From Fibrobacterota bacterium (lineage in GTDB: Bacteria; Fibrobacterota; Chitinivibrionia; Chitinivibrionales; FEN-1185): a stretch of 64,000 nt of DNA. Both the position numbers and the translations under genes were made by a program. The notes beneath the pieces are model-generated. The model did no database searches. It worked only from the letters and a program-made list of their open reading frames with translations, and was not told the DNA's origin. The DNA lies in assembly GCA_003165595.1 (NCBI GenBank), contig PLWQ01000012.1, forward strand, positions 269,542 through 333,541, written 5' to 3'. Positions 1 to 28,129 of this stretch are shown here, piece after piece (positions within the stretch are counted from its first letter, which is position 1; every line of letters begins with the position of its first letter).

Positions 1-681
1 GTCAAAAAAGCTTACTGCGAGCCGGCCGACCCCCAGCGGATGCCATTTTCGGGGCCCGCCGTCCGTGCCGGCAATCAATCCCTGCGTTGGATCAAATCCT
101 CCTAGATTGTACGCCACCCCGACGAATTTTGAACCGTAAAACCCGCCGATATTCACGCCGGTTTCACGTCCGCTTGTCCTGCCTGTTAAAAAGGACCGCA
201 GGTACATGCTCGTTAACCCTTTGTCAAGAGAATTGACCCCTGCGTCGGGAGCGATGTTTTCATGTCCGCTTTGCGGCCGGAAATACCCGAAGGTGATATT
301 CGCAAACGTTGAATCAAGCGCGTAGCTCATGTACAAGTCATAGAGCTGGAAGGTGGTATTGGTGGTGGCCTGTGCAGTGCCCAGCGAACCCGTGAACTGG
401 TCTTTGCCGAGATTATCAAAGGCAAAGATAGTGGAATAGGTAAGTCCCGGGATCGCCTGCCCCTTCACGCCGACCCTGCCTTGTTTTAAAAAAAGATCGG
501 CGCACGAAGAGGTGGCAGGCACGTCATTGGGATTCTGCGTGTATGCTCCCCACAATTGGTATGATTGTGTAAGTTCGCAAGAGCTTTTCCCGTCGTTGAA
601 CGTGAGCTTAGGGCCGGCAAAAACCACACAAAAGCAAACCAAGCCAAATAGACATGCCGAAACGAAAGCGCGTGCTTTCAT
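1..681 (-). CDS. Outer-membrane anion-porin-like protein, N-terminal 227 codons (gene runs off the left edge)
   Basis: Absent from the ORF track because it has no stop in the window. Hand translation of the minus strand from ATG 681-679 gives MKARAFVSACLFGLVCFCVVFAGPKLTF..., open to position 1. It has a signal peptide. The KQGRVGVKGQ and GRLAVSFF segments resemble phosphate-selective porin O/P-type proteins. The + ORF 512..700 is its antisense shadow. Confidence 0.5.
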   Translation of the reverse strand, partial: MKARAFVSACLFGLVCFCVVFAGPKLTFNDGKSSCELTQSYQLWGAYTQNPNDVPATSSCADLFLKQGRVGVKGQAIPGLTYSTIFAFDNLGKDQFTGSLGTAQATTNTTFQLYDLYMSYALDSTFANITFGYFRPQSGHENIAPDAGVNSLDKGLTSMYLRSFLTGRTSGRETGVNIGGFYGSKFVGVAYNLGGFDPTQGLIAGTDGGPRKWHPLGVGRLAVSFFD

Positions 682-726
682 AAGCATCCCTTTCCATTAA
701 ATGAAAAATGGCTGACTAAACATTCT

Positions 727-750
727 TGTTATGTAAAATATTATACAACG
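727..750. promoter_or_regulatory. ModE-operator-like inverted repeat upstream of the porin-like gene
   Basis: TGTTATGTA-AAATAT-TATACAACG. The minus-strand reading TGTAT-N7-TACAT has one mismatch to the TATAT-N7-TAYAT ModE core. It lies 46-69 nt upstream of the ATG at 681. Its right half is identical to the right half of the 12992-13015 site. Confidence 0.4.
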
Positions 751-902
751 GAAGAACAGTCAACTCCCTTTGCATTGGAGAGAGGCGGAGCGAAAAGTGG
801 AGCAGCGAAAAAAAGAATAGCGGCCCTATGCGCAAATTAATTATTACACCTTTTTGAAAAGATTCCGCAGAGTGGATGTTTCGACACTTTGTTTGACGGT
901 TT

Positions 903-1709
903 CTATTCGGTTACCGCAACAATGACCTGCGAGGCATTGAACACGGCGCATACCTCGCTGCCCAGGGAAAGCTTCATGCTTTCTGAGCTTTTTTTAGTGA
1001 TGGTGGCGACAATGGTCCTGTTGCCGTCGAGTGCGATCTTTATTTCGTTGTTCACAGCGCCCTTTGTTATCCAAATGACTTTTCCGCACAGACGGTTCAT
1101 GGCGCTCGTTTTGGTTTCTTCATCATCGACAACCATGAGGATCACGGCCGAAGCCTTGATAAGCGCCGTCGCTTTTCCGCCCTTCCTCAGGTCAAGCGCC
1201 CGAGCGCTTTCGTTTGTGATAACCGCCGTGATCGAGTCCTTTTCGCTGATGCGGAGCACGACTTCGGCTGATACCGGTCCACGCACTATCCTATCGATCG
1301 TGCCGGAAAACTGGTTGCGCGCGCTGGTTTTCACGATGAGGCCCCTTGCGAAATCGGTAAAAAAAGCAAAGTCGTTCTTTCTCCCGGATAGGGTTTTCGT
1401 GATAATTTCGAATTGCCGCTGCTGGTGACCGTACTCATCGAGGATCTTTTTACCGTAGTCCGACAGTCTGCATCCGCCACCGTGTCTGCCGCCCGTGCTG
1501 GTGACGACAAGCGATTTGGACGAAAGGTTGTTGAGCCTGTCGATAAGATCCCAGGCGGTCTTGTAGCTGATGCCGACTTCTTTGGCGGCCGAGGTGATCG
1601 ATCCGAGTTTGTCAACGCTTTGAAGAAGATCGATGGCGTTTTTTTCGAGCAGGTGGCGTCCACCGAACAGGAGCCACAGTGGGCCGAAAGAGGGGGAATT
1701 GGAGTTCAT
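903..1709 (-). CDS. modE: Molybdate-responsive transcriptional regulator ModE (N-terminal HTH plus two Mop/TOBE domains)
   Basis: 268 aa. The N-terminus has GSITSAAKEVGISYKTAWDLIDRLN (ModE-type HTH). The C-terminus has two repeats of the SARNQFxGTI...GPVSAEV / TSAMNRLCGKV molbindin motif. Confidence 0.9.
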   Translation of the reverse strand: MNSNSPSFGPLWLLFGGRHLLEKNAIDLLQSVDKLGSITSAAKEVGISYKTAWDLIDRLNNLSSKSLVVTSTGGRHGGGCRLSDYGKKILDEYGHQQRQFEIITKTLSGRKNDFAFFTDFARGLIVKTSARNQFSGTIDRIVRGPVSAEVVLRISEKDSITAVITNESARALDLRKGGKATALIKASAVILMVVDDEETKTSAMNRLCGKVIWITKGAVNNEIKIALDGNRTIVATITKKSSESMKLSLGSEVCAVFNASQVIVAVTE

Positions 1710-1786
1710 GCGCTTCCGAAAAGAGAGGTGTAGTATTTCTAATATTCGCTAGAAAGAAAATAGTCTTATCCCATTGTCGAAACAAT

Positions 1787-1826
1787 ATTGAAGAATCCTC
1801 GTAGTAAGCTGCGAGGATTCTTCAAT
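1787..1826 (-). terminator. Stem-loop downstream of mop (15-bp perfect stem)
   Basis: ATTGAAGAATCCTCG-tagtaagctg-CGAGGATTCTTCAAT, 60 nt after the mop stop. On the minus strand it is followed by a moderately T-rich tract (ATTGTTTCG). Confidence 0.5.
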
Positions 1827-1887
1827 CCCTGCAGAATAAGAACATACTCTTAGTCGTTCGCTAATTCGTCCCCTTTGGGTTCCCGCG

Positions 1888-2316
1888 TTACTGCTTAATC
1901 GCCAGAATAACGTGCGAAGCTTTGACGAGCGCGCAAATGGTCTCGCCATTTTTCAGCTTCATGTCGTCAAGGCTTTTTTTGGTAATAGTGGCTACGATGG
2001 AATTCCCGTCGTCAAGATGTATGGTTACTTCGTCGGTCACCATGCCTTCGACGATTCCGTCCACCTTACCGCAGAACCGGTTCTTGGCGCTGGTCTTTAC
2101 ATGTTCGTCAGGTTCCATAAGAATTACCGACGAGGCCTTTATGAGAGCGGTAGCTGTATCGCCTTTCTTAAGGCCGAGGTATTGGGCGCTTTCGTTGGTG
2201 ATCACGGCTGTCACGCTGTTTTCTTTACTGATGTGCAAAACGACTTCAGCCGATACCGGACCGTGAACAACCTTTTCGATGACGCCCGTAAGTTGGTTGC
2301 GTGCGCTTGTTTTCAT
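1888..2316 (-). CDS. mop: Di-Mop molybdenum/tungsten-binding protein (molbindin, two TOBE/Mop domains)
   Basis: ORF 1888..2418 trimmed to ATG 2316, which is preceded by AAGGAG. Two repeats are present: MKTSARNQLTGVIEKVVHGPVSAEV and KTSAKNRFCGKVDGIVEG. They are paralogous to the ModE C-terminal half. Confidence 0.85.
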   Translation of the reverse strand: MKTSARNQLTGVIEKVVHGPVSAEVVLHISKENSVTAVITNESAQYLGLKKGDTATALIKASSVILMEPDEHVKTSAKNRFCGKVDGIVEGMVTDEVTIHLDDGNSIVATITKKSLDDMKLKNGETICALVKASHVILAIKQ

Positions 2317-2362
2317 GTCCTCGCTCCTTTTCTTGAAAATTGAATTAGGCCATGTGTTCGAA

Positions 2363-2387
2363 TTATCTACGCATCTTTCGTAGATAA
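2363..2387. promoter_or_regulatory. Perfect 9-bp inverted repeat upstream of mop
   Basis: TTATCTACG-CATCTTT-CGTAGATAA, 47 nt upstream of the mop ATG. The CG is on the inner side, so the architecture differs from the ModE-like boxes. Confidence 0.3.
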
Positions 2388-2950
2388 GATCAAGTAAGAG
2401 AAAGAAAGGATCTTTCAAAAGTTAACATCAGGTTAATCATTTTGCTATCCGGAGAATCCTGGTTAGGTTATTGCAAAGATAATTTTCCCTTGCAAGAATC
2501 GGTGCTTTGAGACAGGAACATTAGGCTCTTTGATTAATAACGCCGCAAATACTGGGCCACTCCCACAATCCGCAGCTATCCTTGATTTCGGTTTCTTTTC
2601 GATTAAAATTTGCAGAAATGATAAGAAACAAGCTTTACGGCACCTGACAATTCGTGCGGCCGGTGTCGACGGACCCGGATACCGGTTTCATCTGGTAGCA
2701 GGCACCAGTAGCGCATACGTCCATGACCTCGGCACGCCGACATTCTCTTCAATGTTAAGCCTGTCGGACAACGCTTCTGCTGCAAGAAACTGTTCATGAT
2801 TCAGCGAAACCTCGCCATGAACAGTTTCTAATCATTTGGAGTAGCCGCGCTAGCGAACCTTCGAGGGTATGGCAATCACTATAATGATTGGCGCGAAGCA
2901 CCATTACCATACCATAAGGTAACGAAGTGACAATGCGCTCGCTATGGGAT

Positions 2951-5137
2951 TCAATCCCAATTGAAATTCGTATGGAGGTTGACAAAGAACGTACGTCCCT
3001 CCTCCGGATATCCTGCTTCTAAAAAGTAGTTCTTATCAGAGACATTCCTTACTCCCCCCTCGAATGACGCGTTTGCACCCAGAGGAACATTTAATGATGC
3101 ATTCCAGAGAGCGTACTCGGGAACCGTTGATCCTTGACTTGTCGTATAGCGCCAAGAATCGTATTCTGCACTTATAAGGGCATAGCATCCGGTGATCGGG
3201 GTATATTTGACATATCCGACGACTTTGCCCGGAGGTATGTCGGTAAATTTGATCGCCGGATGAGAGAGGTTGTGTTTGTCTAGATAGCTGGCGTTTGCGC
3301 CAATCTCCAACGCTTTCGCCCACTCAACATCGTGAAAAACCGTAGCGTCAAGGCTCAGTTCAACTCCCGGCATCTCGGCCTCACCGGTATTCTGCATCTG
3401 TGCACGTGCATTGGCATCCAGCACGCCTGCTTTAATCACGCTGTCAACCGACTGTATCGCATCATACAAATGCGTGTAGAAAAGGCTCACATGGCCGGAT
3501 AATGACCATTTCCCCAGATTCAATCCCGCATCATAGGCCGCCTCATAATTAACGGCATCTTCAGGTTGAAGAGTAGGATTGGGAATCGCCGTGCCCAGCT
3601 TGTAGGAATATCGATCCTTGAGCGTCGGGAACCTTGTCTTGCGCGCTATCGATATACTGGCATTCTGTGAACTATTGATATCAATTGTCGCCTTGCCCTC
3701 CGCATTAAAAGCTTGGGCGTTGTTGCTCGGGAAAGGGACTATCGAGTCAAAAACATTCTGAAATATCTTACCGTTGTAATGCGAGTAGAAATTGTCCGCT
3801 TCAACACTTGACCGGTTATCATAGGAAATTCCTCCTGTCAAGTTGAGAATCTTGAGAATAGTGGCGCCGTCCTCTAAACCAAGCGAAAACGTGTTGTCCT
3901 TGAAATGCCGTAAAGGCTCTTCCTGAAACGGTTTGGTGTTGGCTACCTTGACGGTGTCGTAGGCATTATGTTCTTCATGATAGTCTCGTTTGCCGTGAAG
4001 GGCGACACTCATCTCGTTTCCCGGAATAATGGTAGTGCCGAGTTCAACGGCGCCGCCTGCTGTCCAGTCATCATAATTGCTTTTAAAAGAAGACCTTTTC
4101 TTGAATGTCGAATAGGTCGAATCGTCACAAGCGAAAAGGCTGTTGCTCAACTCATTATAATAGACCGGAACCTTGAGGGAAAAATTATCGGAAAGCACGG
4201 TTTTTGAAGACAGGTAGACGCTCTGTTTGTCCCAATAGGGCCAATACCAGTAGCGTACCATGCCCGTGGGATCGACGGTCGGCGGTACACCTTTTTCCCC
4301 ATGTTGATTATCATAGGAGAGTGCATATTCATCACCTGGCGCCGGGTCCCACCCGATTTTTGCACTCGCCTTTGCATCACGGTGATATGAATTTGCGCGT
4401 AACCCGCCACTCTGGAGCACAGTCGGGGTAAATGCTTTCGACAACTCATAATTGCCTTTGTCAAGATCGGAAATCGAGCCCATCAGAAAAAAATTACCCA
4501 ATCGAGACCCTACGCCTATGTTCATGAGACTGCCGTTTAAATGGGGCATAAGCGTTGAGTCGCGCTTGGTGTCGACATACCCCATGGTGCCCACATCCGC
4601 TTGCAGTTCGAGCTTGTGCACCGGTTTCCGGGTAACCAGATTGATCGCTCCCCCAATTGCATTCGGGCCGTAGAGTACCGAAGAATATCCTTTTTCAACC
4701 TTTATTTCCGAATAATCGAACGTCGTGAAACGTCCCAGGTCGACATATCCGTCGTACGGCACATAAATCGGAACGCCGTCGATATAGAGGGGAACCGAGC
4801 GCAGATCAAATCCTCGGATATATACTTGCGACTCGTTTCTTGGACCGATATCGGAAACGTTTACTCCGGGAAGAAGCGAAAGTGCGCGGGCAACATCGGT
4901 GCGGCCGAATTCCTTCATTTGTGCACTGGTGACAACATCCTTATTCTGTTGTTTTTTCTCGCTGCCGGTGACAACAACGGTTCCAAGCGAAAAAACCGAT
5001 GATGTATCCTGCTTGAGCGCCGTGTCACGCTGACTTGTGCCGGTAACATCAGCGGCTCTCGATGGAAATGCATTTACTATAAGGCATAATGAAAACAGGA
5101 TTAAGGAGTGATTGGTTATTGGGTGCGCACGAGACAT
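2951..5137 (-). CDS. TonB-dependent outer-membrane receptor (plug plus 22-strand barrel type), substrate unknown
   Basis: 728 aa with a signal peptide. It has a TonB-box-like LGTVVVTG and plug motifs (IRGFDLRSVPLYIDGVPIY, YGPNAIGGAINLVT). The terminal aromatic barrel end is ...NLHTNFNWD. No N-terminal STN signalling extension is present. Confidence 0.9.
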   Translation of the reverse strand: MSRAHPITNHSLILFSLCLIVNAFPSRAADVTGTSQRDTALKQDTSSVFSLGTVVVTGSEKKQQNKDVVTSAQMKEFGRTDVARALSLLPGVNVSDIGPRNESQVYIRGFDLRSVPLYIDGVPIYVPYDGYVDLGRFTTFDYSEIKVEKGYSSVLYGPNAIGGAINLVTRKPVHKLELQADVGTMGYVDTKRDSTLMPHLNGSLMNIGVGSRLGNFFLMGSISDLDKGNYELSKAFTPTVLQSGGLRANSYHRDAKASAKIGWDPAPGDEYALSYDNQHGEKGVPPTVDPTGMVRYWYWPYWDKQSVYLSSKTVLSDNFSLKVPVYYNELSNSLFACDDSTYSTFKKRSSFKSNYDDWTAGGAVELGTTIIPGNEMSVALHGKRDYHEEHNAYDTVKVANTKPFQEEPLRHFKDNTFSLGLEDGATILKILNLTGGISYDNRSSVEADNFYSHYNGKIFQNVFDSIVPFPSNNAQAFNAEGKATIDINSSQNASISIARKTRFPTLKDRYSYKLGTAIPNPTLQPEDAVNYEAAYDAGLNLGKWSLSGHVSLFYTHLYDAIQSVDSVIKAGVLDANARAQMQNTGEAEMPGVELSLDATVFHDVEWAKALEIGANASYLDKHNLSHPAIKFTDIPPGKVVGYVKYTPITGCYALISAEYDSWRYTTSQGSTVPEYALWNASLNVPLGANASFEGGVRNVSDKNYFLEAGYPEEGRTFFVNLHTNFNWD

Positions 5138-5195
5138 AGGAATCCTTTCGGAAAAGAATGGATGAAAGTCCCCGGATTAGTTGCCTGACAAATAG

Positions 5196-5219
5196 CGTTA
5201 TATATTTTTCTATATTACG
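5196..5219. promoter_or_regulatory. ModE operator-like inverted repeat upstream of the TonB-dependent receptor gene
   Basis: CGTTATATA-TTTTTC-TATATTACG. It contains an exact TATAT-N7-TATAT and has ATCG/CGCT-type flanks. It lies 59-82 nt upstream of ATG 5137, in the 124-bp gap after the DUF364 gene. Confidence 0.65.
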
Positions 5220-5261
5220 ATGAGTGACATATGACTCCTTTGAATATGTTGACGAGGATAA

Positions 5262-6068
5262 TTACTCAGAACCTTTCAGATTCACTTCCGCAGCGCCGGA
5301 TCTGTCATCGAATAGTTTAGGGGAATCAGGCCTTGTGATGTTGATTTTCTGCAATGCGCCTTGCGGAGCATGCATAATGCTGCCTCCACCCATCCCGAAA
5401 TAGCGAAGAGTTTTGTTGACATCCATGATTCGTGAAGTGCCGAGCCGATGCAGACCCAATTTGAAGAGGCTGGGCGTGAGCGGCACCGTGGGCCCCATTA
5501 TGACACGGGTTGTTGCGTTAGGGGTCCTGCAAATTACCTCCCCGAACGTCCCGTTCACGAGCGTGAGCCCGGTCATGAATACCAGTTTCGCGCGGGAAAG
5601 CACGCCATGCGAATCGTCCCAACGGATGTCCCCCGGTCTGGGCAAAAGCTCCACAATCGATACCGGCCGCCCTTCATCGCGCCACATCTCCGCATCATGA
5701 AAATGGCCGATAAAGCAGGTTGGGCGTGTCTTGGTTTGCTCGGAAAACGGGTCTATTGCCGAGCTTACCGTGAATTCGGGAACCGGTGGGATCACGCATT
5801 TCAGGCAGGCCATGCCCACGGCAATCCGAAGAACGTCCGTCGAAGCGAGGTATTCTTGCGCGATTTCCGCCGCCTTCCGTCCAATCAGATCGCCCAGCCA
5901 GGTGTCCCGGGGATTTTCCGTGAGCCCGGGAGTGGCCGAGAAGCAGGTTGACATTTCATAGCGCCCGGCTTTGACCACCACCCAGTGATGGAAGAGATGG
6001 ATGTCCTCCATCAGAGTTGAATAGTCCGTGATAGCGGAAATGAGCGTTTCACGTACAATTGTTTCCAT
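5262..6068 (-). CDS. DUF364/DUF4213-family protein (putative heavy-metal chelation Rossmann-like fold), copy 2
   Basis: 268 aa. GHFHD...ELLPRPGDIRWDD...AKLVFMTGLTLVNGTFGEVI...VIMGPTVPLTP matches the DUF364 pattern. It is paralogous to 6111..6905. Confidence 0.7.
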   Translation of the reverse strand: METIVRETLISAITDYSTLMEDIHLFHHWVVVKAGRYEMSTCFSATPGLTENPRDTWLGDLIGRKAAEIAQEYLASTDVLRIAVGMACLKCVIPPVPEFTVSSAIDPFSEQTKTRPTCFIGHFHDAEMWRDEGRPVSIVELLPRPGDIRWDDSHGVLSRAKLVFMTGLTLVNGTFGEVICRTPNATTRVIMGPTVPLTPSLFKLGLHRLGTSRIMDVNKTLRYFGMGGGSIMHAPQGALQKINITRPDSPKLFDDRSGAAEVNLKGSE

Positions 6069-6110
6069 AAGATTTCTTCTTCTACAAGTCGAACAACAAT
6101 GTAACTCTAG

Positions 6111-6905
6111 TCACCTGACGTCGGCCGGATACAGCTTCACCATGTGCGCGCCCTGTTTGAAGATTGATCGGTCGCCTCCCTGCGCCACATGTTGCCAGAT
6201 CCTGTCGGCATCGATAACCGTGGTGCCGGCCAGGGACGCGATTCCTTTACTGAACCACAAAGGGGTCAGCGGGACACTCGGACCCACCATAACCATGCAG
6301 GCGTTGCGGCCCAATTCCATAAGCCGGGGCAATGTCTTGTTGGTAAACGTAACGCCGGTCATAAACAGGAAATCCTGATCTTCCAAAATGTATTCGCACG
6401 CCGGATCAGGGAAATCGCCCTCCAGGGGGTTCCGCTCCAGGATGGAAAGCCGGCACATGGTCGAAAGCTCGGCCAGGTCCGGAAAGTGACCCACCACGGT
6501 CACCTTCTTGCCGGTGAGCTCGGGTTTCATGACGATAAAGACACTCTCGTTGACCTGCGACTCCGGCTGAGTCTTCCAAACATTCGCCATAGTGGAAGGC
6601 GCATTGACATAGGCGTTGATCGCCGCAACACCAAGGGCCGCCTCATAGGGCTGCCACGACTTGACAAAAGCAGCGAGTTCACGCAACCTGCGGCCCTTGA
6701 AGGCTCCGGCGCCCGAAATGGAGTGGGAACCATGCGGAGGCGTCATGGCGACGCCAACCCCCACGGAACGCACGAGTGTCCAGTGAATGCCGACAAGCAC
6801 GTCGTCGACCACCAGGTCGTCGGGGATCAGCGAAATCAGTTGATCGTACAACTCCCACTTCGATGGAGTGGTTCCTGATGAATCGCGGGAATCCGAGTTC
6901 TTCAT
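6111..6905 (-). CDS. DUF364/DUF4213-family protein, copy 1
   Basis: 264 aa. VVGHFPDL...ILERNPLEGDFPDPACEYILEDQDFLFMTGVTFTNKTLPRLMEL...VMVGPSVPLTP. Its start overlaps the xdhC-like stop (ATGA). Confidence 0.75.
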   Translation of the reverse strand: MKNSDSRDSSGTTPSKWELYDQLISLIPDDLVVDDVLVGIHWTLVRSVGVGVAMTPPHGSHSISGAGAFKGRRLRELAAFVKSWQPYEAALGVAAINAYVNAPSTMANVWKTQPESQVNESVFIVMKPELTGKKVTVVGHFPDLAELSTMCRLSILERNPLEGDFPDPACEYILEDQDFLFMTGVTFTNKTLPRLMELGRNACMVMVGPSVPLTPLWFSKGIASLAGTTVIDADRIWQHVAQGGDRSIFKQGAHMVKLYPADVR

Positions 6906-7750
6906 TTCCCCTCCGATTTGTCAGGTGTGATGGTTCCCTCCTCATGCCAGGGAAATCTGAAATGCTCCGGCGTGCCTTTGTTGATGAGGAGGATTATCTG
7001 GGCCACTATTGCCAAAGCGATCTGCTCCGGAAGATTGTTGGCGATTTTCAAACCCACCGGCGAGTAGACCCTTTCATCAACATGTCCGCCCCTGGAACGG
7101 ATGTTGTTGACAACGATTCCGATTTTATTCTGGCTGCCGATCATGCCAATGTAGGGAACATCTTTGTTCCGAAGGATCTGTTCCAGACAAGTCTCGTCGT
7201 GTTTGTGCCCATGAGTCAGTATGACGCAGTAACTCGCACTGGTCAGCTTCATCGTCTCACTCAACGATTCATACGGTTTACATACACACTCGACTGCCGA
7301 AGGAAACCGTTCGGCGGATGAGAAATCTTCCCGGTTGTCAAACACGCGGTATGGCATATTGAGGATTTCGCAATACTTGGAAACCTTTTCACCGATATGG
7401 CCTCCGCCAAAAATCACGACTTCAGCCTCGGGCAAAACAGGCTCGATGAACACGGTTACCGATCCGCCGCAAAGGCCCTGCACCGTCCTGTCAGGTGTTA
7501 CCTGCCACAGGTCTCCCGCAAGAGAGAAATCCAAGCTGATGCAGCGGTTGTCTTTGATGGCCTTTAAAGCTTCTGCACGGCTGATGTGCTCAACCGGTCC
7601 TCCTCCGACCGAACCGGCAATCTCGTTCGCCACGCTCACCACCATCTTGGAGCCGACACCCCGTGGCACCGACCCTTCGGCCTTGACGATTGTGACGATC
7701 GCGCAGGCAATGCCCTTGTTCTTCCATTCATTCAAACTCTTGAGCCACAT
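6902..7750 (-). CDS. XdhC/CoxI-family accessory protein (molybdenum-cofactor handling family)
   Basis: ORF 6902..7789 trimmed to ATG 7750, which is preceded by AGGAG. The N-terminus has ACAIVTIVKAEGSVPRGVGSKMVV...GSVGGGPVE (XdhC_CoxI). A Rossmann-like VVIFGGGHIGEKV follows. Confidence 0.8.
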   Translation of the reverse strand: MWLKSLNEWKNKGIACAIVTIVKAEGSVPRGVGSKMVVSVANEIAGSVGGGPVEHISRAEALKAIKDNRCISLDFSLAGDLWQVTPDRTVQGLCGGSVTVFIEPVLPEAEVVIFGGGHIGEKVSKYCEILNMPYRVFDNREDFSSAERFPSAVECVCKPYESLSETMKLTSASYCVILTHGHKHDETCLEQILRNKDVPYIGMIGSQNKIGIVVNNIRSRGGHVDERVYSPVGLKIANNLPEQIALAIVAQIILLINKGTPEHFRFPWHEEGTITPDKSEGK

Positions 7751-7804
7751 GTTCGCTCCTTTCAACTTTGTGTGTATCCAACCGGACACGTGACGCGGCG
7801 GCCC

Positions 7805-8470
7805 TTACTCCATCCGATATTCCAACGGGAACTTCAAGATAACCCGTACCGGCGGATGGGGAAATGGGGCCGCCCGTCTGACCGTGGCAACGGCATCCCG
7901 ATCGAGTATCGAAGCCCCTGATCCCTTGAGTATCTCAATACTGTCAACGTCGCCGTCTTCGCGTACGCAGAATGAGAGTAAGACCGTGCCGGAGATTTTC
8001 ATTTCGAGCGCCATGGGCGGATAAACTGCTTTGCGGTAGATGATGTCCCGGATGTATTCGAACTGCTCTTTCAAATACCGCTGCCTCTCCCTCTCCCGCA
8101 CTTGGCCCGTGTCCTGCGGCATTCCTAGCGGGCCGATCGAGGCAACCTGGACCAACTGATTGTCAACTCCGCTTGGTTCGGCATCCGTGAACTGCGCCGT
8201 ATCGGCAATGATATCTTCGGCGGTTGTGTCGGGAAATTTCTCTTCTTCCTTAACCGGCGGAGGCGCGGGTCTTCTGGCGTGCCGAGGAGCCGGTTCCGGC
8301 ACGGGGACCGTTGATGCCGCCGGCTGTATCACCGGCGATTTCTCGATGTTAAAGTCGATCGTGAGCGTACGAGCCGCCGGAGCGGAAAACGCCGCAATGC
8401 CGGTAACGGCGGCGATAAAAACCCCATGGATCGTCAGCGACACAAGCGTTGCACGTTTCTGATACTTCAT
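7805..8470 (-). CDS. tonB: TonB energy transducer
   Basis: It has an N-terminal TM helix, a Pro-rich spacer (VPVPEPAPRHARRPAPPPVKEEE) and a C-terminal TonB domain (YPPMALEMKISGTVLLSFCVREDGDV...). Confidence 0.85.
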   Translation of the reverse strand: MKYQKRATLVSLTIHGVFIAAVTGIAAFSAPAARTLTIDFNIEKSPVIQPAASTVPVPEPAPRHARRPAPPPVKEEEKFPDTTAEDIIADTAQFTDAEPSGVDNQLVQVASIGPLGMPQDTGQVRERERQRYLKEQFEYIRDIIYRKAVYPPMALEMKISGTVLLSFCVREDGDVDSIEILKGSGASILDRDAVATVRRAAPFPHPPVRVILKFPLEYRME

Positions 8471-8847
8471 CGCACGGACTCCGTCTGCAAGCTGACCCGC
8501 GTGAACCCCCGGGTCTTGACGACATCGAGCACGTCCACGAACGTCTGAAGGGCAATTTTCCTGTCTGCGCGGATAAGGATCGGTGTGGACCGATCTATGT
8601 GCATGAGCGCCTCAAACAGCGCCCGTTGGCACACGGCAGAGGAGTTGTAGTAGATGGTGCCTGTGCGGTCGATCTCGATTGTCTGTATTCGCAGCAGATC
8701 CTCCCGGTTCTTGGATGCCTGCGGCAGCTGCAACGGGATGGATCCCGCCGCGACCAGCGTTGATGTGGTGAGCACGATGGTGAGCAGCACCAGCATCACG
8801 TCAACAAACGGTATCACGTTGATATAGTCGAATTCCTTTTCATCCAT
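8467..8847 (-). CDS. exbD: ExbD/TolR biopolymer transport protein
   Basis: ORF 8467..8970 trimmed to ATG 8847 ([26 protein letters not shown]...). It overlaps the exbB stop by 8 nt and the tonB start by 4 nt. Confidence 0.85.
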
Positions 8848-9262
8848 GATGAATGTCCCACTCAAGGAGCAGCCTTTTGACTTTCCGCAAAAGGAAATTA
8901 TAGAGTACCACGGACGGTATTGCGACAAGAAGGCCTGCCGCCGTCGCCTTGAGCGCCAGGGCAAGGCCAACCATGATCTTGCCCGTGTCCATGAATCCCT
9001 GGTTGCCCAGGGTGTAGAATGTCAACATGATGCCCAGCACCGTGCCCAGCAGGCCCACATACGGCGCGCTGCTGCCGATGGTGGCGATTACATGAACCCG
9101 GGACGTCAGCATGAGTTCCAGTTCCTTTTTGCTGCCAAAGTCGGCGGGCCGGATGCGGCGGTACGTGAGCCACCGTTCGATCGCCACGCTCACCGAGACT
9201 ACGCTGAGAAATACCAGAAGTCCGATGATGCCGAAGTCGATCCCGAATTTCAGCCATTCCAT
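8840..9262 (-). CDS. exbB: ExbB/TolQ/MotA-family proton channel
   Basis: 140 aa with three TM segments. The [17 protein letters not shown] signature is typical of ExbB/TolQ. Confidence 0.85.
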
Positions 9263-9292
9263 GGTTTACTTCCCATCGCCAGTGTCGTACGT

Positions 9293-10375
9293 TCAATGCG
9301 CAAGCGCCCGTTCCAGCAGCTCCGCGCATTCCGTGTCATTGAGCTTTTTGAAATAGAACAGTTCGTAGAATCGCCTTGTTTCTGCGCGCATGTCGATCTT
9401 CATCCGGTCCGGATACAGCAGATTGGCCAGCCACCGCAGGCCGATAATACGGTTGACAGAGGGCGGCCGATCGAACCAGCCGAAGGGCAGTGATGGTATC
9501 TCGAATACCTTCTTGTTCTTTACGGCATCGAGGTTCCGCCACGCGGGGTCGGACATGATTTTTGCGAAGTTTTCCGTGCCGTGCGCGAACCCGTGGTCCA
9601 CCTGCACGATGATCATCTCCGGTTTCCACAGCAGAAGCTGCTCGAACGAGACTGCTGCGCGGCCGTACCCGCGCACCATGGGTACATCGGCCACGTTATC
9701 TCCGCCCACCATATCAAGCACCTCGGCATGCGTTGACCCCTTCGGGTCCGTTTCCAGCCCGTTGAGTCCTTCGGCGTAGTAAACCCGTATACGCTTCTGC
9801 GCCGGCATCGACGCAACGACAGCGGCGACCGTATTGAGGGTCTGCCGGCAATAACCGGCAAGGGTATCGGCGCGGCGCTCCTCACCAATGAGGCCGCCCA
9901 CAAAGCGGTACGACGTGTCAAGCGATGTCAGCCGACCGTCGACCATCACCACCGGCGTTCCAAGTTGTTTCTCCATGCGCTCCGCTGCGGAAACGTCTGT
10001 TTTGTCAATATACCCCATCGACAGAACGATGTCGGGTTTCGCCTTGATGATCACCTCGGGGTTACCGGTGGTACTTTTGCCGAACCACCCTCCGAGAAGC
10101 GGTTTTTTGTTGTACTCCTCAACAAGGAATCGTCGTTCGTCCGCGTCAGGGTTCCATGTTGTGCCGGTGATTTTGCCGGGCGCAAGTGTGTACATCAACA
10201 CCTCGCCCATCGGCGACGTCGAGTAGACGGAACGTATGGCAGAAGGAATAGTGACATGGCGGCCTGCCATGTCCACGATCGTTCTTACGGAAGGAGACCC
10301 GGCCCAGCAGGCGCCCGTTGCGAGCGCCGCGAAGACCAGCACCGGAGTCATTACGCACAGATTCTTGTTTGTCAC
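9293..10375 (-). CDS. Periplasmic binding protein of a FecB/BtuF-type (chelate) ABC importer
   Basis: 360 aa with a signal peptide. It has a class-III binding-protein layout (RIVSxxP..., KPDIVLSMG, WKPEMIIV, FEIPSLPFGWFDRPPSVNRIIGLRW). Confidence 0.85.
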   Translation of the reverse strand: MTNKNLCVMTPVLVFAALATGACWAGSPSVRTIVDMAGRHVTIPSAIRSVYSTSPMGEVLMYTLAPGKITGTTWNPDADERRFLVEEYNKKPLLGGWFGKSTTGNPEVIIKAKPDIVLSMGYIDKTDVSAAERMEKQLGTPVVMVDGRLTSLDTSYRFVGGLIGEERRADTLAGYCRQTLNTVAAVVASMPAQKRIRVYYAEGLNGLETDPKGSTHAEVLDMVGGDNVADVPMVRGYGRAAVSFEQLLLWKPEMIIVQVDHGFAHGTENFAKIMSDPAWRNLDAVKNKKVFEIPSLPFGWFDRPPSVNRIIGLRWLANLLYPDRMKIDMRAETRRFYELFYFKKLNDTECAELLERALAH

Positions 10376-11148
10376 TTAGCACCTCCCATGGCCGGAACGC
10401 ACAAAAATCGGCCTTCCGCCACTGAAATAATATCAACGTCGATCCCATACATTCTTTTGAGCAGCGTACAGGTTAGCACTTCTTTGGGTGGACCGTCGGC
10501 CGCGATGCGGCCGTCCAGCAGCGCTATCACCCGGGTGGCGCACGCGAATGCGTGGTCCGGGACATGGGTCGTGATCATCACTCCCATGTCTTGGGTTGCA
10601 AGTTCACGGATAAGATTCAGCGCCCGGATCTGGTTGCCGAAATCAAGGTGCAACGTGGGTTCGTCCATGATGAGAAATTGCGGCGACTGCGCCAGCGCGC
10701 GCGCGATCAGCACCAGTTGGCGTTCACCCCCGCTAATCTGCGCGTAGTTGCGGTCGCACAGATGACCGATATGCAGCAGGTCCATGACGCGCGCCGCTTC
10801 GCGCCTGTCATCCGCCGAGGGAATGGAGAAGGCGCCGATAAAGGGCGTCCTTCCCATGAGCACGACGTCCATGGCGCTGAAGGGAAATGGCGGGATGTGG
10901 ATCTGTGGGACATAGGCCAGCGTCCGAGCTCGTTCCCGCGTTGTGAACGTGCAGGCGGACCGCTGATCGAATTGGATATCTCCTCGCGAGGGAATGAGCC
11001 CAAGAATCGCCTTGAAAAGCGTGGTCTTGCCCGAGCCGTTGGGTCCCAGCAAGCAGACGACCTCGCCCGAATGCAACGATGCGCTGATTTCCGAAATAAC
11101 CGTGCGCGACCCGTATCCCGCCGATATGTTGCTTATCGCCAGTTTCAT
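10372..11148 (-). CDS. ABC transporter ATP-binding protein (FecE/BtuD-like)
   Basis: This is the real 258-aa product inside ORF 10372..12042 (MKLAISNISAGY...). It has Walker A GPNGSGKTT, signature ISGGERQ and Walker B LIMDEPT. ATGA overlaps occur at both ends. Confidence 0.9.
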   Translation of the reverse strand: MKLAISNISAGYGSRTVISEISASLHSGEVVCLLGPNGSGKTTLFKAILGLIPSRGDIQFDQRSACTFTTRERARTLAYVPQIHIPPFPFSAMDVVLMGRTPFIGAFSIPSADDRREAARVMDLLHIGHLCDRNYAQISGGERQLVLIARALAQSPQFLIMDEPTLHLDFGNQIRALNLIRELATQDMGVMITTHVPDHAFACATRVIALLDGRIAADGPPKEVLTCTLLKRMYGIDVDIISVAEGRFLCVPAMGGAK

Positions 11149-12308
11149 ACCCACCCCCTGCGCCCCCGGGCGAGCAGGAATACGAAAAACGGCGCGCCGA
11201 TGATCGCGGTCAGGATGCCGATGGGTATCTCGATGGGGAACGCGACGCGCGCCACGGTGTCGACGACGAGTAGGAACGTACCGCCCAGGAGCAGCGATGC
11301 GGGGAGCAGCACCGGGAAAGAGGGGCCCACCAGCATACGCGCCAGGTGCGGAACCACCAACCCGATCCAGCCGATCATACCGCTGATGGACACCGCCGCG
11401 GCGGTCATGAGCGTTGAAGACACGATCGCGATCGCCCGTATCCGACCCGCGTCCACTCCCATGGCTTTGGCTTCCTCGTCGCCGAACGAGAGTACGTTGA
11501 TCCGCCACCGCACGAGGAGTAAAGGGATTGCGCCCGCTACGGTCGCGATTGCGGCGATGCGGGCGTCGGACAAATTGACCGAGGCCAGGCTTCCCATGAG
11601 CCAATAGGTGATCGCGGGGAGCTTTGAGTATGGATCGGCGACATACTTGACAAGCGAAAGCAAGGCGGAAAACAGGGTGCCGGTCACGATGCCGCACAGT
11701 ACGAGCGTCAATGTCTTTTCTCCGCGCTTTCCGACAAAGGCGGACAGCATGACCGTGGCAAACACCGAGACAAGGCCAAAGCCAAAGGAAAAAAGCTGGA
11801 TCCCGACCACCCCGACCGAAAGCAGTATCGCCAGGGCCGCACCGAACGCCGATCCCGCGGTGACACCCAGAAGAGAAGGATCCACCATGGGGTTGCGGAA
11901 TATACCTTGGTAGCACGCGCCAGAACCCGACAGGGCCATGCCGACAAGAACCGCCGCACACATGCGCGGCAGACGGACATGGAACAAAACGGTGCTGCTT
12001 GCACCGAACACCATGGTGTCGTGGTGCCATAGTGATTTCCACACCAAGTGCAGCAGTTCACCGATACTGACGGGGTAACGTCCAACTGTCAAGGCTGCCA
12101 CGGCCATCACGCACAGGGCGATCGCCAGGCCAGCCAGAACCAGGGGTCCCTTTGGCCCCACAGAATTGACCGACTGGTTTGTTGTGCCGCCGTTCGTTCC
12201 TTTGTGCGTCTCTGCGGTCCCGGCAGTTGCCAGATGAGAATTAGCCGGTTCCGGACCATGCGGCTGATCATTCTTGACAGGCGGTTTACTCGTGGTGTTC
12301 GGTATCAT
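11145..12308 (-). CDS. FecCD/BtuC-family ABC permease
   Basis: ORF 11145..12833 trimmed to ATG 12308 (MIPNTTSKPP...). It has about 9-10 TM segments. GILTAIIGAPFFVFLLARG at the C-terminus is typical of FecCD. Confidence 0.85.
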   Translation of the reverse strand: MIPNTTSKPPVKNDQPHGPEPANSHLATAGTAETHKGTNGGTTNQSVNSVGPKGPLVLAGLAIALCVMAVAALTVGRYPVSIGELLHLVWKSLWHHDTMVFGASSTVLFHVRLPRMCAAVLVGMALSGSGACYQGIFRNPMVDPSLLGVTAGSAFGAALAILLSVGVVGIQLFSFGFGLVSVFATVMLSAFVGKRGEKTLTLVLCGIVTGTLFSALLSLVKYVADPYSKLPAITYWLMGSLASVNLSDARIAAIATVAGAIPLLLVRWRINVLSFGDEEAKAMGVDAGRIRAIAIVSSTLMTAAAVSISGMIGWIGLVVPHLARMLVGPSFPVLLPASLLLGGTFLLVVDTVARVAFPIEIPIGILTAIIGAPFFVFLLARGRRGWV

Positions 12309-12322
12309 CGAAAGTTGATGTG

Positions 12323-12874
12323 TCAATGTGCCGTGTAGTAGCTGCCAGACGAGCAGGCCATGCATACCGGCCCTTTTTCCCCGATTGTATCCTTGCCGTC
12401 GAAGACCTTTTCTCCGCACTCGACGCAGGTGACAACCCGCTTTGGCTTTCCGGGCATCTCTTCGGGCCGCAGGTTGACCTTCACTTCCCGCCATGCGAGC
12501 ATCTCTTCGTCCGGGATGTAAAGTGCCTGTCGAACCGCATCTTCGTCTTCGCCGTTGATCGTGCGATCCATGGCAACGTTTAGACGCCATGAATGGTTCG
12601 TGGTGACATTCATGAATGTCGCGGCCATCCTGCCGTAGTCCTTGAGTTTGAAGCTCCGCCGCCCCAGGCGCGTACCGGTGACCGTCTGGATGGCGTCGGC
12701 GATGCAGCGATCGTTCTCCACCACGACGATCAGGTCCTTGTAGGTGGACGGCGCCGCCAGGGACAACCCCTTGACGGCAAGGCGCACTCCCAGCACCTGC
12801 CCCATGCAGAGGTGACCGTGGAATGTGACGCATTTGTCCAGAAGCTCGCCGAGTTCTTCCTTTGTTTTGCTCAT
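12323..12874 (-). CDS. FmdE-family protein with C-terminal zinc ribbon
   Basis: ORF 12323..12892. MSKTKEEL is the likely start at 12874. It has the FHGHLCMGQVLG motif (FmdE FHGHxCPG type) and a C-terminal CVECGEKV...CMAC ribbon. Confidence 0.8.
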   Translation of the reverse strand: MSKTKEELGELLDKCVTFHGHLCMGQVLGVRLAVKGLSLAAPSTYKDLIVVVENDRCIADAIQTVTGTRLGRRSFKLKDYGRMAATFMNVTTNHSWRLNVAMDRTINGEDEDAVRQALYIPDEEMLAWREVKVNLRPEEMPGKPKRVVTCVECGEKVFDGKDTIGEKGPVCMACSSGSYYTAH

Positions 12875-12991
12875 GATATTCAGCCTCATCACACTAAGGT
12901 TATGTTACCTCATTGAAATACCTTCGGAAACAGCTCATGAATTATGTTTACCCCGAAATTGACAGAATAAGAAGACAATGTCTTGCAGTTT

Positions 12992-13015
12992 CGTAATATA
13001 CCTATTTATACAACG
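12992..13015. promoter_or_regulatory. ModE operator-like inverted repeat upstream of the fmdE-ABC-exbBD-tonB-xdhC-DUF364 operon
   Basis: CGTAATATA-CCTATT-TATACAACG, flanked by TT/AA. The minus-strand reading TGTAT-N7-TATAT has one mismatch to the core. It lies 118-141 nt upstream of ATG 12874. Its left half is identical to a half-site of the 5196-5219 box. Confidence 0.55.
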
Positions 13016-13139
13016 AAAGCACAAAAAAACTTCCGCTGCATACAGCCACGGAAGCCTTGTGTTCACTCATCAACCGCAATGATTGTCTGCGAAGCGTTGA
13101 ACACCTCGCAGGATTTGTCATATCATGAAGAAATACAAA

Positions 13140-13910
13140 TCAAGAAATGGCATCGTAGGTTGCCTTCACGGCGGCGACTAGAATAACGACAGCGAACACG
13201 CGTTGGAGCATACAGCAAGAGATCTTCTTCTCTGCTAGCGTCGCGCCGCAAAGTCCGCCGATGAGCGCAGCCCCTGCCAACGGCAAGACGATACTCAACT
13301 CAATTCCACCTCTAATTCCATGTGCTGCTAACCCAATGCCTGACAATGCTAATACCAGGACGGAATTCATTGCAGCCATCTGTTTTGGTCCTGCCAATCC
13401 GAGAAATAGAATGAGCGGCCCGAGAAACACGCCGCCCCCAATTCCCAGGAAACCTGAAAGGAACCCGATAACAAGCCCTGCCGGGATTCCTATTAAGAAA
13501 AGACGAAGACGCCCCGGATCTTTTTCCTGCTCTTGAGCATTTGGCGCAGCTCGAAACATCGCGATGGCGGCGATTGCAAGGGTTGCCGCCAATAATGCAA
13601 AAAATATCTTCCGATCGGCTGTTATGAATCCACCCAGGAATGCAGCCGGCATGGCGGGTAATAAAAACGGCAGGATAAGTCTCCAATTCAAACGTCCGGC
13701 CAAACCGAAACGCAGTAATGCCGCCCCCGTCACTACAATGTTTAACAACAAGACAGTTGGCGTCATTGCAGCAGCGGACATTCCACAGAGGGACAAGATG
13801 GCAAGATATCCTGTGCCGCCACCGAGGCCGACGGATGCATATGCCCCGGCAACAACCATAACCAAAGGCACTAGAAGTAGAAAAGTCCCAAGCGTCAATG
13901 TATCTGACAT
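13140..13910 (-). CDS. TauE/SafE (TSUP) family anion permease
   Basis: 256 aa with about 8 TM segments. It shows a Gly-rich internal duplication (GLGGGTGYLAILSL / GIGGGVFLGPLILFL). Confidence 0.85.
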   Translation of the reverse strand: MSDTLTLGTFLLLVPLVMVVAGAYASVGLGGGTGYLAILSLCGMSAAAMTPTVLLLNIVVTGAALLRFGLAGRLNWRLILPFLLPAMPAAFLGGFITADRKIFFALLAATLAIAAIAMFRAAPNAQEQEKDPGRLRLFLIGIPAGLVIGFLSGFLGIGGGVFLGPLILFLGLAGPKQMAAMNSVLVLALSGIGLAAHGIRGGIELSIVLPLAGAALIGGLCGATLAEKKISCCMLQRVFAVVILVAAVKATYDAIS

Positions 13911-13933
13911 TTCATTCTCGCATTACCATTAAG

Positions 13934-14830
13934 TTATTTGCTTGCTTTTTGCTTGCCGGTCACCGCAAGGGGAAAGTTGGTCTGGCGTTTGAATTTTTGT
14001 ACGCCGGAATTGGCTATGTACTCCTGTATTTTCGGGGAAGTCAGATACCCTATGAAAGTCATTGCATCAACGTAATGGGCGTCCGGATATTTCTGCGGGT
14101 TTGCAGCCAGGACCTCATAGGCGGTTACCAGCTTATTGTCCATGTTACCGTCGACCATGACGTTCATATCAAGGGTTTCCTGCTGTTGTATGAATGAAGG
14201 ATAATGGACAATCGTATATCCCCTCTTTCTATTCGCTATCACGAGGGTCGCGTCCGTGCCGGCATTTGTTGTGATATACCAGTCGCCCTTTGGCTCAATC
14301 TTCGCCAGTTTCCACATTTTCATTTCCAATCCGTAAGTGCCGGAGTTGTCTCCCCGGGAGAAAAACAGCGCTTTCTTCTTTGCTATAATTTTGAGCGCCT
14401 CGGTCGGGTCTTTCATTCCCCTTATACCCGCCGGGTCTTCCTTGGGACCGACAATCGCGAAGATCGAATACATCACTTCTCTTAAATTGACCAAATATCC
14501 GTCGGCTACGAGTTTGTTTTCAATATCCTTTTCGTGCCCTATAAAAACATCTATTGGTTGCGCACTGTCGGAACGCATGAGTTTGTCCCCGTCTCCGGTG
14601 CACAAGTTTAATTTCTTAATGGGTATGTTGTACTCTTTTGTGAACATGCCGATGAGTTCATCCGGCAGTTCGGTGGAGCAAAGGGTGGCTGGGAAAATTA
14701 CTGCGAGCGTTTTTGAATCTCTTGATTCCGGAGGGGTTGGTTGAGCCGACATCACGGGTAAACCCGCCAAGGATATCAGGACTGCTGAAAAACATAACAA
14801 CCTGATACCTGAGACTTTGCCTCTAAGCAT
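13934..14830 (-). CDS. TupA-like periplasmic substrate-binding protein (PBP-like_2 family), orphan
   Basis: 298 aa with a signal peptide. FFSRGDNSGTYGLEMKMWK resembles the SRGDxSGTHxxExxLW motif of tungstate-binding TupA. The N-terminal anion-binding TTTS/DSGL motif is not conserved (ATLCSTELPDEL). No tupBC genes are adjacent. Confidence 0.6.
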   Translation of the reverse strand: MLRGKVSGIRLLCFSAVLISLAGLPVMSAQPTPPESRDSKTLAVIFPATLCSTELPDELIGMFTKEYNIPIKKLNLCTGDGDKLMRSDSAQPIDVFIGHEKDIENKLVADGYLVNLREVMYSIFAIVGPKEDPAGIRGMKDPTEALKIIAKKKALFFSRGDNSGTYGLEMKMWKLAKIEPKGDWYITTNAGTDATLVIANRKRGYTIVHYPSFIQQQETLDMNVMVDGNMDNKLVTAYEVLAANPQKYPDAHYVDAMTFIGYLTSPKIQEYIANSGVQKFKRQTNFPLAVTGKQKASK

Positions 14831-15878: not shown

Positions 15879-15935
15879 ATGGAGTATCCCCTATAATGAA
15901 TAGACACCGAAGACCCATCAACGGTTACAACTATT

Positions 15936-16511: not shown

Positions 16512-16610
16512 AGAATTTATTTGTCGGATATGACTTCGTTCTTACAAAATGACACTTTAATATACTATGACCCCGTATTTCGGGATAACACTTATCAAAG
16601 AGGCCATGGC

Positions 16611-17537: not shown

Positions 17538-17552
17538 AAGGCTTCGGCGGAC

Positions 17553-18998: not shown

Positions 18999-19004
18999 TT
19001 GTCT

Positions 19005-20753: not shown

Positions 20754-20805
20754 TCCGGAACCGGCGCAGCCTTCACGGCGGCTGCGTTCACGAAAGGAGT
20801 TTGCA

Positions 20806-27983: not shown

Positions 27984-28129
27984 CGGCGCCCGACAGAACC
28001 CCGCTGATTCTTGAGCCGGGAAGACTTTCCGAGAATCCGCTCGCTGTGCAATTCGAACATTTTCTTGTCAATACCCCTCGCTTTTTCTCCGTACTATTGC
28101 TGGAGAACGGGATCAAGGAGGTGATTGGT

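Follow-up and report, generated by a model that had tools for sequence, protein, structure and literature searches.

What would a bacterium import through an outer-membrane receptor, a TonB motor and an inner-membrane ATP-binding cassette (ABC) transporter whose genes stand among those of molybdenum-cofactor proteins and behind sites resembling the operators of the molybdate regulator ModE? Such an island lies at the left end of a 64,000-nt stretch of DNA, hereafter the window, from a Fibrobacterota bacterium (Chitinivibrionia; Chitinivibrionales; FEN-1185; assembly GCA_003165595.1, PLWQ01000012.1:269,542-333,541, forward strand). The source genome is a Fibrobacterota metagenome-assembled genome (MAG) whose closest relative, L007, shares 86-90% protein identity with it. 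An earlier note on this DNA had read the island as a route, repressed by molybdenum or tungsten (Mo/W), for a chelated form of the metal. We think it probable on balance, if by no means assured, that it is a ModE-repressed Mo/W acquisition island in which a MolBCA-type importer works with its own TonB-dependent receptor and ExbB-ExbD-TonB motor. It would then probably give the bacterium a second, energy-coupled route for Mo or W. The question bears on the Mo/W supply of anaerobes where sulfide strips free molybdate, the processes concerned being nitrogen fixation, acetogenesis, syntrophy and methanogenesis.

Gene content and operators of the island

The island comprises 14 genes on the minus strand, and their positions as given in the earlier note were borne out by the open reading frames (ORFs) of the window, which match base for base the genes called independently on L001, a 112-kb contig from the source genome. 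Families were assigned with the curated cut-offs of Pfam and the cut-offs of NCBIfam, and solved relatives were sought by comparison with the PDB. Ten of the genes form an operon that begins with an FmdE-like protein (12323-12874; Pfam FmdE), a type II ABC permease resembling MolB (11145-12365; Pfam FecCD), an ABC ATPase resembling MolC (10372-11148) and a class III periplasmic binding protein of the 4PAG/MolA clade (9293-10375; Pfam Peripla_BP_2). These are followed by ExbB (8840-9262; Pfam MotA_ExbB), ExbD (8467-8847; Pfam ExbD), TonB (7805-8470; Pfam TonB_C), a molybdenum-cofactor chaperone of the XdhC/CoxI type (6902-7750; Pfam XdhC_CoxI and XdhC_C; PDB 2WE7), a DUF4213/DUF364 protein of the main family (DUF364b, 6111-6905) and its divergent paralogue (DUF364a, 5262-6068). 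The five start/stop overlaps reported earlier are exact (11145-11148, 10372-10375, 8840-8847, 8467-8470 and 6902-6905), as is the gap of 124 bp ahead of the next gene, which encodes the TonB-dependent receptor (2951-5137). The receptor has Plug and barrel domains, a signal peptide and a TonB-box-like LGTVVVTG, and together with MotA_ExbB, ExbD and TonB_C all parts of a TonB system are present.

Beyond the receptor gene lie those of a di-Mop molbindin (1888-2316; two Pfam TOBE domains, E=1e-34; TIGR00638 Mop, 136 bits) and of a full-length ModE with a helix-turn-helix (HTH) domain and two TOBE/Mop domains (903-1709; Pfam HTH_1 and two TOBE). In NCBIfam this ModE matched ModE with E=1e-45, which is below the equivalog cut-off, ModE_repress with 88 bits and Mop with 123 bits. 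The last gene is the 5' part of a porin-like outer-membrane gene (1-681), which in full encodes 438 aa on L001. The family names of the earlier note agree with Pfam above the curated cut-offs except for this porin, which gave no Pfam match and only a weak NCBIfam resemblance to the porin ExtI. The 634-bp gap between the receptor and mop genes (2317-2950) contains no convincing ORF and no Rfam match, and tblastn with all ORFs of the locus and blastn against the sister genome L007 returned self-matches only.

The statement that no ModABC, TupABC or WtpABC transporter is encoded here proved to be an artefact of the window edge. On L001 the porin-like gene opens a unit, porin-modA-mop-modB-modC(-modD), that runs past the left edge of the window on the same contig. 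Its modA product matches TIGR01256 with 180 bits (cut-off 62.5) and its modB product TIGR02141 with 208 bits (cut-off 183). In addition, a TupA-like binding protein is encoded at 13934-14830, although with 111 bits its match to NCBIfam TupA falls short of the cut-off (400).

Three predicted ModE-type operators precede three transcription units. The first, at 12992-13015, stands ahead of the ten-gene operon and has no mismatch to the pattern of the earlier note and two to the Escherichia coli ModE consensus; the second, at 5196-5219, stands ahead of the receptor gene (none and one); the third, at 727-750, stands ahead of porin-modABC (two and three). These three sites are the sole matches in the 64 kb both to the pattern of the earlier note (expected 0.03) and to the E. 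coli consensus CGNTATATA-N6-TATATANCG (expected 0.01), which is quoted as CGnTATATA-N6-TATATAnCG (PMC545781). A predicted sigma-70-like promoter (763 to 735) has its -10 hexamer inside operator 3. As modABC lies in the porin unit, operator 3 would therefore control the canonical high-affinity molybdate transporter.

The inner-membrane importer and MolBCA

The permease is 43% identical to MolB (HI1471) over 325 residues (246 bits), the next matches being haem permeases (167 bits) and BtuC (127 bits), and among solved structures the ATPase comes nearest to MolC (HI1470; 132 bits). When a profile of the binding protein built from 27 orthologues was compared with the PDB, it matched 4PAG with 322 bits and 4OVK with 176 bits, both uncharacterised, then MolA with 130 bits and the uncharacterised 'iron complex' binder 4HN9 with 118 bits. 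Siderophore, haem and B12 binders all scored below 96 bits, so that among characterised proteins MolA comes closest, though only slightly ahead of 4HN9. No NCBIfam family was above its cut-off for the receptor, the binding protein, the permease, DUF364 or FmdE. Of the earlier label 'FecBCD-type' the FecCD family stands, as given by Pfam, but type II importers are not confined to chelates, and the nearest solved relatives here are MolB and MolC.

MolBCA imports free molybdate and tungstate (PMC4031551, PMC4245157), and the route through its membrane part, MolBC, is narrow, as befits small substrates (PMC4245157). The affinity of MolA for oxyanions is weak, ~100 µM (PMC3928620, PMC4031551). The mol locus of Haemophilus adjoins modA/modD and is repressed by molybdate (PMC4031551, PMC3928620).

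The binding protein belongs to a family of 508 clusters (50% identity) at E<=1e-30 among 1.84 billion representatives. Tandem fusions occur in this family (P0121, P0177), one of 768 aa with two matched stretches and one of 964 aa with three.

A conserved module and its receptor

To place the island among its relatives we used a DUF364 alignment to scan one genome per species, which gave 80 loci (numbered L) that were annotated with profiles seeded from the window proteins. The DUF364 protein had at least 579 relatives in the scan, and DUF364b had 818 homologues. A core operon recurs across the 80 loci, which represent more than ten phyla; in it FmdE, DUF364, FecCD permease, ATPase and binding protein genes are optionally preceded by XdhC and optionally followed by a methyltransferase or TrmO-like gene. 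The carriers belong to the Fibrobacterota, Acidobacteriota, Binatia, Deltaproteobacteria, Verrucomicrobiota/Victivallales, Alphaproteobacteria, Spirochaetes, Sumerlaeota, Firmicutes, Actinobacteria and Chloroflexi. Every carrier found is an anaerobe or stems from an anoxic habitat, and several can be cultivated, namely Moorella thermoacetica, Clostridium ljungdahlii, Desulfosporosinus and Syntrophaceticus schinkii.

Neighbour percentages refer to those 67 loci that were 8 kb or longer. A type II ABC importer was near the module in 79% of these, a TrmO or methyltransferase gene in 48%, FmdE in 39%, XdhC in 24% and ModA, ModB, ModE or Mop in 40%. Recurrent neighbours in the full set were MoeA (7 loci), ModD (4), a molybdopterin oxidoreductase of the formate dehydrogenase type (5), a cysteine desulfurase (8) and a selenium/sulfur (Se/S) carrier (7). 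The genes of the desulfurase (TIGR01977 family) and of the small protein resembling a Se/S carrier stand after those of the binding protein and TrmO (L028, L032, L033, L046, L049, L068, L074 and L084), a hint that sulfur (or selenium) transfer may be a step linked to the module.

The TonB-dependent receptor of the island has no close solved relative and no NCBIfam family. An orthologous receptor was nevertheless encoded in 23 of the 34 diderm loci (68%), compared with none of the 33 monoderm loci. Receptors kept with the module in the Fibrobacterota, Acidobacteriota, Deltaproteobacteria, Verrucomicrobiota and Alphaproteobacteria are homologous over their full length, and the receptor of the window is 26-39% (mostly 30-38%) identical to module-adjacent receptors in other phyla. 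This full-length homology across phyla argues for a dedicated receptor family, and by the same comparison the receptor would belong to the module. In a Verrucomicrobiota MAG (L015, 1952-10786) a receptor 34% identical to that of the window is followed not by a type II ABC transporter but by an importer of the energy-coupling factor (ECF) type, made up of a 187-aa membrane protein of about six helices, a fused double ATPase and a CbiQ T-component, and then by three DUF364 genes, XdhC and FmdE. Hence, the inner-membrane importer of the module appears to be interchangeable. A 2024 review of the substrates of TonB-dependent transporters makes no mention of Mo or W (PMC11658791).

Receptor plus type II ABC importer is the classical architecture for chelates, and one rival explanation is that the two take up an organic molybdophore or tungstophore, with DUF364, perhaps together with the TrmO or methyltransferase protein, making the chelator from S-adenosylmethionine (SAM) or freeing the metal in the cytoplasm. 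The frequency of the SAM-type TrmO and methyltransferase genes and the weak affinity of MolA for free oxyanions are in keeping with this explanation, as is a gene for an anion permease of the TauE family, which adjoins the module both in the window and in L007, L015 and L047. The only characterised DUF364 enzyme, Orf5 of Streptomyces antibiotic biosynthesis, cyclises a SAM derivative, a chemistry related to nicotianamine-type metallophore synthesis (PMC12930334). However, when the unassigned ORFs within 8 kb of DUF364 were clustered across the 80 loci, no metallophore synthesis or export genes recurred, neither those for nonribosomal peptide synthetases (NRPS) or NRPS-independent siderophore synthetases (NIS) nor those of the opine type. 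Likewise, no chelator synthesis gene (NRPS, NIS, CntKLM-type) or exporter gene was found among the genes of the window, and the TauE permease accompanies the module in few loci only. Unlike siderophore binders, the binding proteins keep 38-64% identity from phylum to phylum, and this points to one universal ligand and not to species-specific chelates. The nearest relatives of the importer carry free oxyanions, and FmdE and DUF364 are also found with type I ModABC, whose binder takes the oxyanion only. We consider uptake of an organic chelate unlikely, and the earlier step from a FecBCD-type importer and a TonB-dependent receptor to chelated Mo/W is not supported by the MolBCA kinship, the missing metallophore genes, the conserved binder and the pairing with ModABC.

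Predicted control by molybdenum and tungsten

Operators resembling those of the window stand upstream of module genes in five genomes of four lineages: L004, L005 (Holophagaceae), L007 and L008 (Fibrobacterota) and L057 (Telmatospirillum). These boxes are intergenic and precede FmdE, DUF364, TrmO, FecCD or receptor genes. As the Holophagaceae loci L005, L006 and L009 are near-identical, the count was made non-redundant, with 18 hits rather than 26, compared with ~5 expected in the 1.35 Mb of related loci.

A second kind of Mo/W switch is found in the Firmicutes, where the RF01055 riboswitch for the molybdenum cofactor (Moco) or tungsten cofactor (Tuco) lies directly upstream of the module (L013, L040, L034, L027, L066 and L042; the hosts are Moorella, Moorellaceae, Alkaliphilus, Syntrophaceticus and Syntrophomonas). 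Regulski et al. assigned RNAs that contain the P3 stem to Moco and those that lack it to the tungsten cofactor (PMC2408646). The P3 stem is present in L034 (5646-5782; Moorellaceae), which is of the Moco type, and missing in L066 (6048-6168; Syntrophaceticus) and L042 (16908-17025 and 20306-20422; Syntrophomonas), which are of the tungsten-cofactor type. This genome's copy of the module has no riboswitch, as Rfam gave no match at E<=1, RF00174 included, over positions 1-20000 of the window.

Given these two independent kinds of switch, the comparison suggests that the island is under Mo/W control, and the proposal of the earlier note that it is a Mo/W-responsive, TonB-energised import system is supported by their recurrence with the module elsewhere. 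The contrary view is that an ordinary iron, haem or corrinoid system happens to stand beside Mo genes, the ModE-like repeats being AT-rich promoter sequence. The operator consensus is indeed AT-rich, and in NCBIfam the permease, ATPase and receptor come nearest, below threshold, to BtuC, haem, siderophore and B12 families. Against this, the three sites of the window are unique where 0.01-0.03 would be expected by chance, the module is repeatedly accompanied by Mo/W regulators and riboswitches in phyla that are not related, and the solved relatives favour MolBCA. The survey of DUF364, FmdE, importer and receptor neighbourhoods that the earlier note had proposed, which was to set modE/mop-type genes against B12 riboswitches and Fur boxes, gave the former in the 40% of loci mentioned above and no cobalamin riboswitch among 26 related loci or in the window. 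No Fur box was found in the window with a 19-bp consensus and up to three mismatches, a weak test in so distant a phylum. We give an iron, haem or corrinoid system very little credence.

Other regulators may serve other lineages. A protein with HTH_3 and PBP_like domains is encoded in 14 loci, and its PBP_like domain is of the type fused to archaeal MoeA; we take this protein to be of the tungstate-responsive TunR family. In Acidobacteriota (L028, L030-L033 and L043, at ~9800-10050) the gap between the divergent receptor and DUF364 genes contains a recurring palindrome, TGTCGTGTA / TACACGACA, and the Spirochaete loci L068 and L074 have a repeated ATAAACGAAC / GTTCGTTTAT. Both sequences are probably operators of other regulators, and the HTH_3+PBP_like protein is possibly the one that acts at them.

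The cytoplasmic proteins

The FmdE-like protein has the motif FHGHLC at residue 19 and a C-terminal CxxC...CxxC zinc ribbon (CVEC at 151, CMAC at 172). The PF02663 structure paper ascribes a metal-binding role to FHGHxC and describes the treble-clef/zinc-ribbon cysteines; it also reports that most FmdE genes adjoin metal transporters and that FmdE domains occur fused to MoCF_biosynth and UPF0066/TrmO domains (PMC2954224). The latter fusions match the TrmO genes that recur in the module.

Both DUF364 proteins have the enolase-N-like DUF4213 and Rossmann-like DUF364 domains above the Pfam cut-offs. DUF364b is a close relative of Dhaf4260 (PDB 3L5O; 165 bits), whereas in its paralogue DUF364a two residues of the main family are missing, the cysteine of PDPACE and the lysine of NKT. 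Orthologues of DUF364a occur only where XdhC is at least 49% identical to that of the window (L007, L008, L014, L015, L016 and L021), which suggests an XdhC-DUF364a sub-module. The XdhC protein scored 200 bits against NCBIfam XdhC_rel_AOR (cut-off 350) and was below the cut-off of TIGR02964 as well. The JCSG paper on Dhaf4260 noted neighbouring transporters for Mo, W and vanadium (V) and predicted flavin- or pterin-like ligands for DUF364 (PMC2954201). A DUF364 gene of Methanococcus maripaludis lies within modABC beside fmdE, in an operon that is cofit with nifH (bioRxiv 10.1101/2024.03.05.583561).

The same pairing occurs in our loci, in four of which the genes of FmdE and DUF364, in some cases together with XdhC, directly adjoin a type I ModABC operon and the locus contains no type II importer (L051, 9408-13217; L085, 5608-10780; L075, 29-3812; L029, 5317-12646). 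One cytoplasmic set thus accompanies three importer classes, of which one carries the oxyanion only, and this makes the unloading of a chelate an unlikely task for it. The earlier proposal that the two DUF364 proteins, XdhC and FmdE act as a chelate-release module is accordingly disfavoured, the set being found with ModABC and, in L015, with an ECF importer. It is more likely, judging from these associations, that FmdE and DUF364, with XdhC where present, hand the metal to cofactor assembly (MoeA, XdhC).

A pterin-binding role for these proteins would also suit another explanation, namely salvage, in which Moco, Tuco, molybdopterin or a precursor shed by other anaerobes is taken up and XdhC, FmdE and DUF364 bind, protect and re-insert the pterin. 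XdhC is of a Moco-binding chaperone family, the predicted DUF364 ligands include pterin-like ones, Moco/Tuco riboswitches control some copies of the module, and the carriers found are all anaerobes or of anoxic origin. A large cargo would explain the TonB-dependent receptor and the type II or ECF importer, as it does for B12 (L015), and NUDIX hydrolase genes in L004 and L005 could in principle serve to cleave dinucleotide cofactors. However, Moco is extremely labile, ModE senses the oxyanion and not the cofactor, and FmdE and DUF364 co-occur with ModABC. MoeA, the metal-insertion enzyme, is moreover a recurrent neighbour, so that the metal would still have to be inserted into the pterin. Finally, MolA binds the bare oxyanion and the MolBC pathway is narrow and meant for small substrates (PMC4245157). 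Cofactor salvage is in our judgement quite unlikely, and transfer of the metal to cofactor assembly remains the role that we prefer for the cytoplasmic set.

Genes flanking the island

Upstream of the ten-gene operon and on the same strand are four co-oriented genes. A TauE-family permease (13140-13910, minus strand) and the orphan TupA-like periplasmic binding protein mentioned above (13934-14830, minus strand) are possible accessory genes of uncertain membership in the island. The latter has TLCS where TupA presumably has TTTS. A FecR-like anti-sigma gene (14823-15878, minus strand) overlaps the TupA-like gene by 8 bp, and the gene of an extracytoplasmic-function sigma factor (15936-16511, minus strand) lies upstream of, and co-oriented with, the anti-sigma, TupA-like and TauE genes. 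This group could be an extracytoplasmic W/Mo sensing system or a secondary carrier that depends on a binding protein. In the sister genome L007 the TupA-like gene precedes porin-modA and has its own ModE box.

The genes farther to the right (17553-28570) are unrelated to the island. They encode a multihaem cytochrome resembling MtrC (17553-18335), a protein with a phage tail-collar domain (20124-20753), and an efflux set of the OEP-HlyD-AcrB kind (22136-27983) with an Hsp20 after it.

A proposed route for molybdenum or tungsten

In the scheme that we favour, high cytoplasmic molybdate or tungstate would lead ModE (903-1709) to occupy the three promoter-overlapping operators. These would govern three units: fmdE-molB-molC-molA-like-exbB-exbD-tonB-xdhC-duf364b-duf364a, the receptor gene, and porin-modA-mop-modB-modC-modD. 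When Mo/W became scarce the three units would be expressed and two routes would open, one through the porin and ModABC and one energised by TonB. In the second, the receptor would take a scarce Mo/W species into the periplasm, where the class III binding protein would pass it to the MolBC-like importer. In the cytoplasm the FmdE-like protein, the DUF364 pair and XdhC may link the metal to the step in which the pterin cofactor is assembled or inserted, and the di-Mop protein would buffer the oxyanion. The cargo is most probably not an organic chelate but the bare oxyanion or some inorganic derivative with which ModA copes badly, such as thio-molybdate or thio-tungstate in anoxic, sulfidic habitats; we put the chances of an oxyanion or inorganic thio-derivative at even or slightly better than even.

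Several points weigh against this scheme. An affinity of the MolA kind fits poorly with TonB-driven scavenging, and the true ligand of the family may differ. In our alignment the most conserved motifs of the binding protein, YYAEG, GSxH and PFNWFDRPPSxxR, are not shared by MolA. The classical cargo of TonB-dependent receptors, of type II ABC importers and of ECF importers such as that of L015 is a large or organic micronutrient. The SAM chemistry of Orf5, taken with the SAM-type partners in 48% of the loci, hints at a small-molecule chemistry that the scheme leaves unexplained. Repression, as opposed to activation, is suggested by the position of the operators only, and the pathway as a whole is a prediction from sequence.

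A bolder version, which we put below even chances, is that the island encodes the first TonB-dependent Mo/W uptake pathway, with a dedicated receptor for a species that ModA cannot use (a thio-anion or a metallophore complex), interchangeable importers, and FmdE and DUF364 as enzymes or chaperones not recognised before that convert the cargo into what MoeA and XdhC can place in the pterin cofactor. The component families were known, and the inner-membrane core is by its sequence a relative of MolBCA. What appears to be new is a conserved, dedicated receptor with a TonB motor under Mo/W control, and the delineation of an FmdE-DUF364(-XdhC) module subject to two kinds of control, by ModE and by riboswitch. 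The module is widespread, has two independent kinds of Mo/W switch and has its own receptor family in diderms. If the scheme is right, Mo and W join the substrates of TonB-dependent transport, the puzzle of the low-affinity MolBCA system gains a physiological context, and DUF364 and the FmdE proteins of non-methanogens, long-standing unknown families, find a place in Mo/W cofactor supply.

Comparison with known systems

The earlier statement that no characterised system has the composition of the island was upheld, and its parts are best compared one at a time. Azotobacter vinelandii takes up catecholate 'molybdophores'. The concept is the same in that Mo (or W or V) would be acquired by energy-dependent uptake, there by way of a secreted chelator; the difference is that A. 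vinelandii has siderophore biosynthesis clusters, whereas none is found in or near the island module.

The E. coli ModE-ModABC regulon resembles the island in its full-length ModE, in operators of the same consensus that overlap promoters, and in having modABC, mop and modD under one control. Beyond these the island encodes a type II importer, a TonB-dependent receptor with its motor, and the trio FmdE, DUF364 and XdhC, which to our knowledge are in no described ModE regulon. The structure papers on Dhaf4260 and PF02663 had already noticed the neighbourhood of metal (Mo, W, V) transporters; the module, the receptor and the Mo/W regulation are left undefined in them.

The chain of receptor, TonB-ExbBD, class III binder and type II ABC importer is that of BtuB-BtuFCD, of siderophore systems, of CntO (pseudopaline) and of ZnuD (zinc), and a metal-responsive repressor is a further common trait of such TonB-dependent chains for metals and cofactors. 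The island differs from them in being under predicted Mo/W sensors instead of Fur, Zur or a B12 riboswitch, and its receptor has no close characterised relative.

The closest comparison is with Haemophilus influenzae MolBCA (HI1470-HI1472), which likewise consists of a type II permease of the FecCD/BtuCD fold, an ATPase and a class III binding protein, and whose molybdate-repressed locus adjoins modA/modD, as the island does (PMC4031551, PMC3928620). The Haemophilus mol locus as listed (HI1469-HI1475; PMC3928620) includes no dedicated TonB-dependent receptor, no ExbBD-TonB and no FmdE, DUF364 or XdhC genes, and MolA lacks the signature motifs of the binding-protein family of the island. MolBCA is described as a low-affinity system, whereas the TonB coupling of the island implies scavenging.

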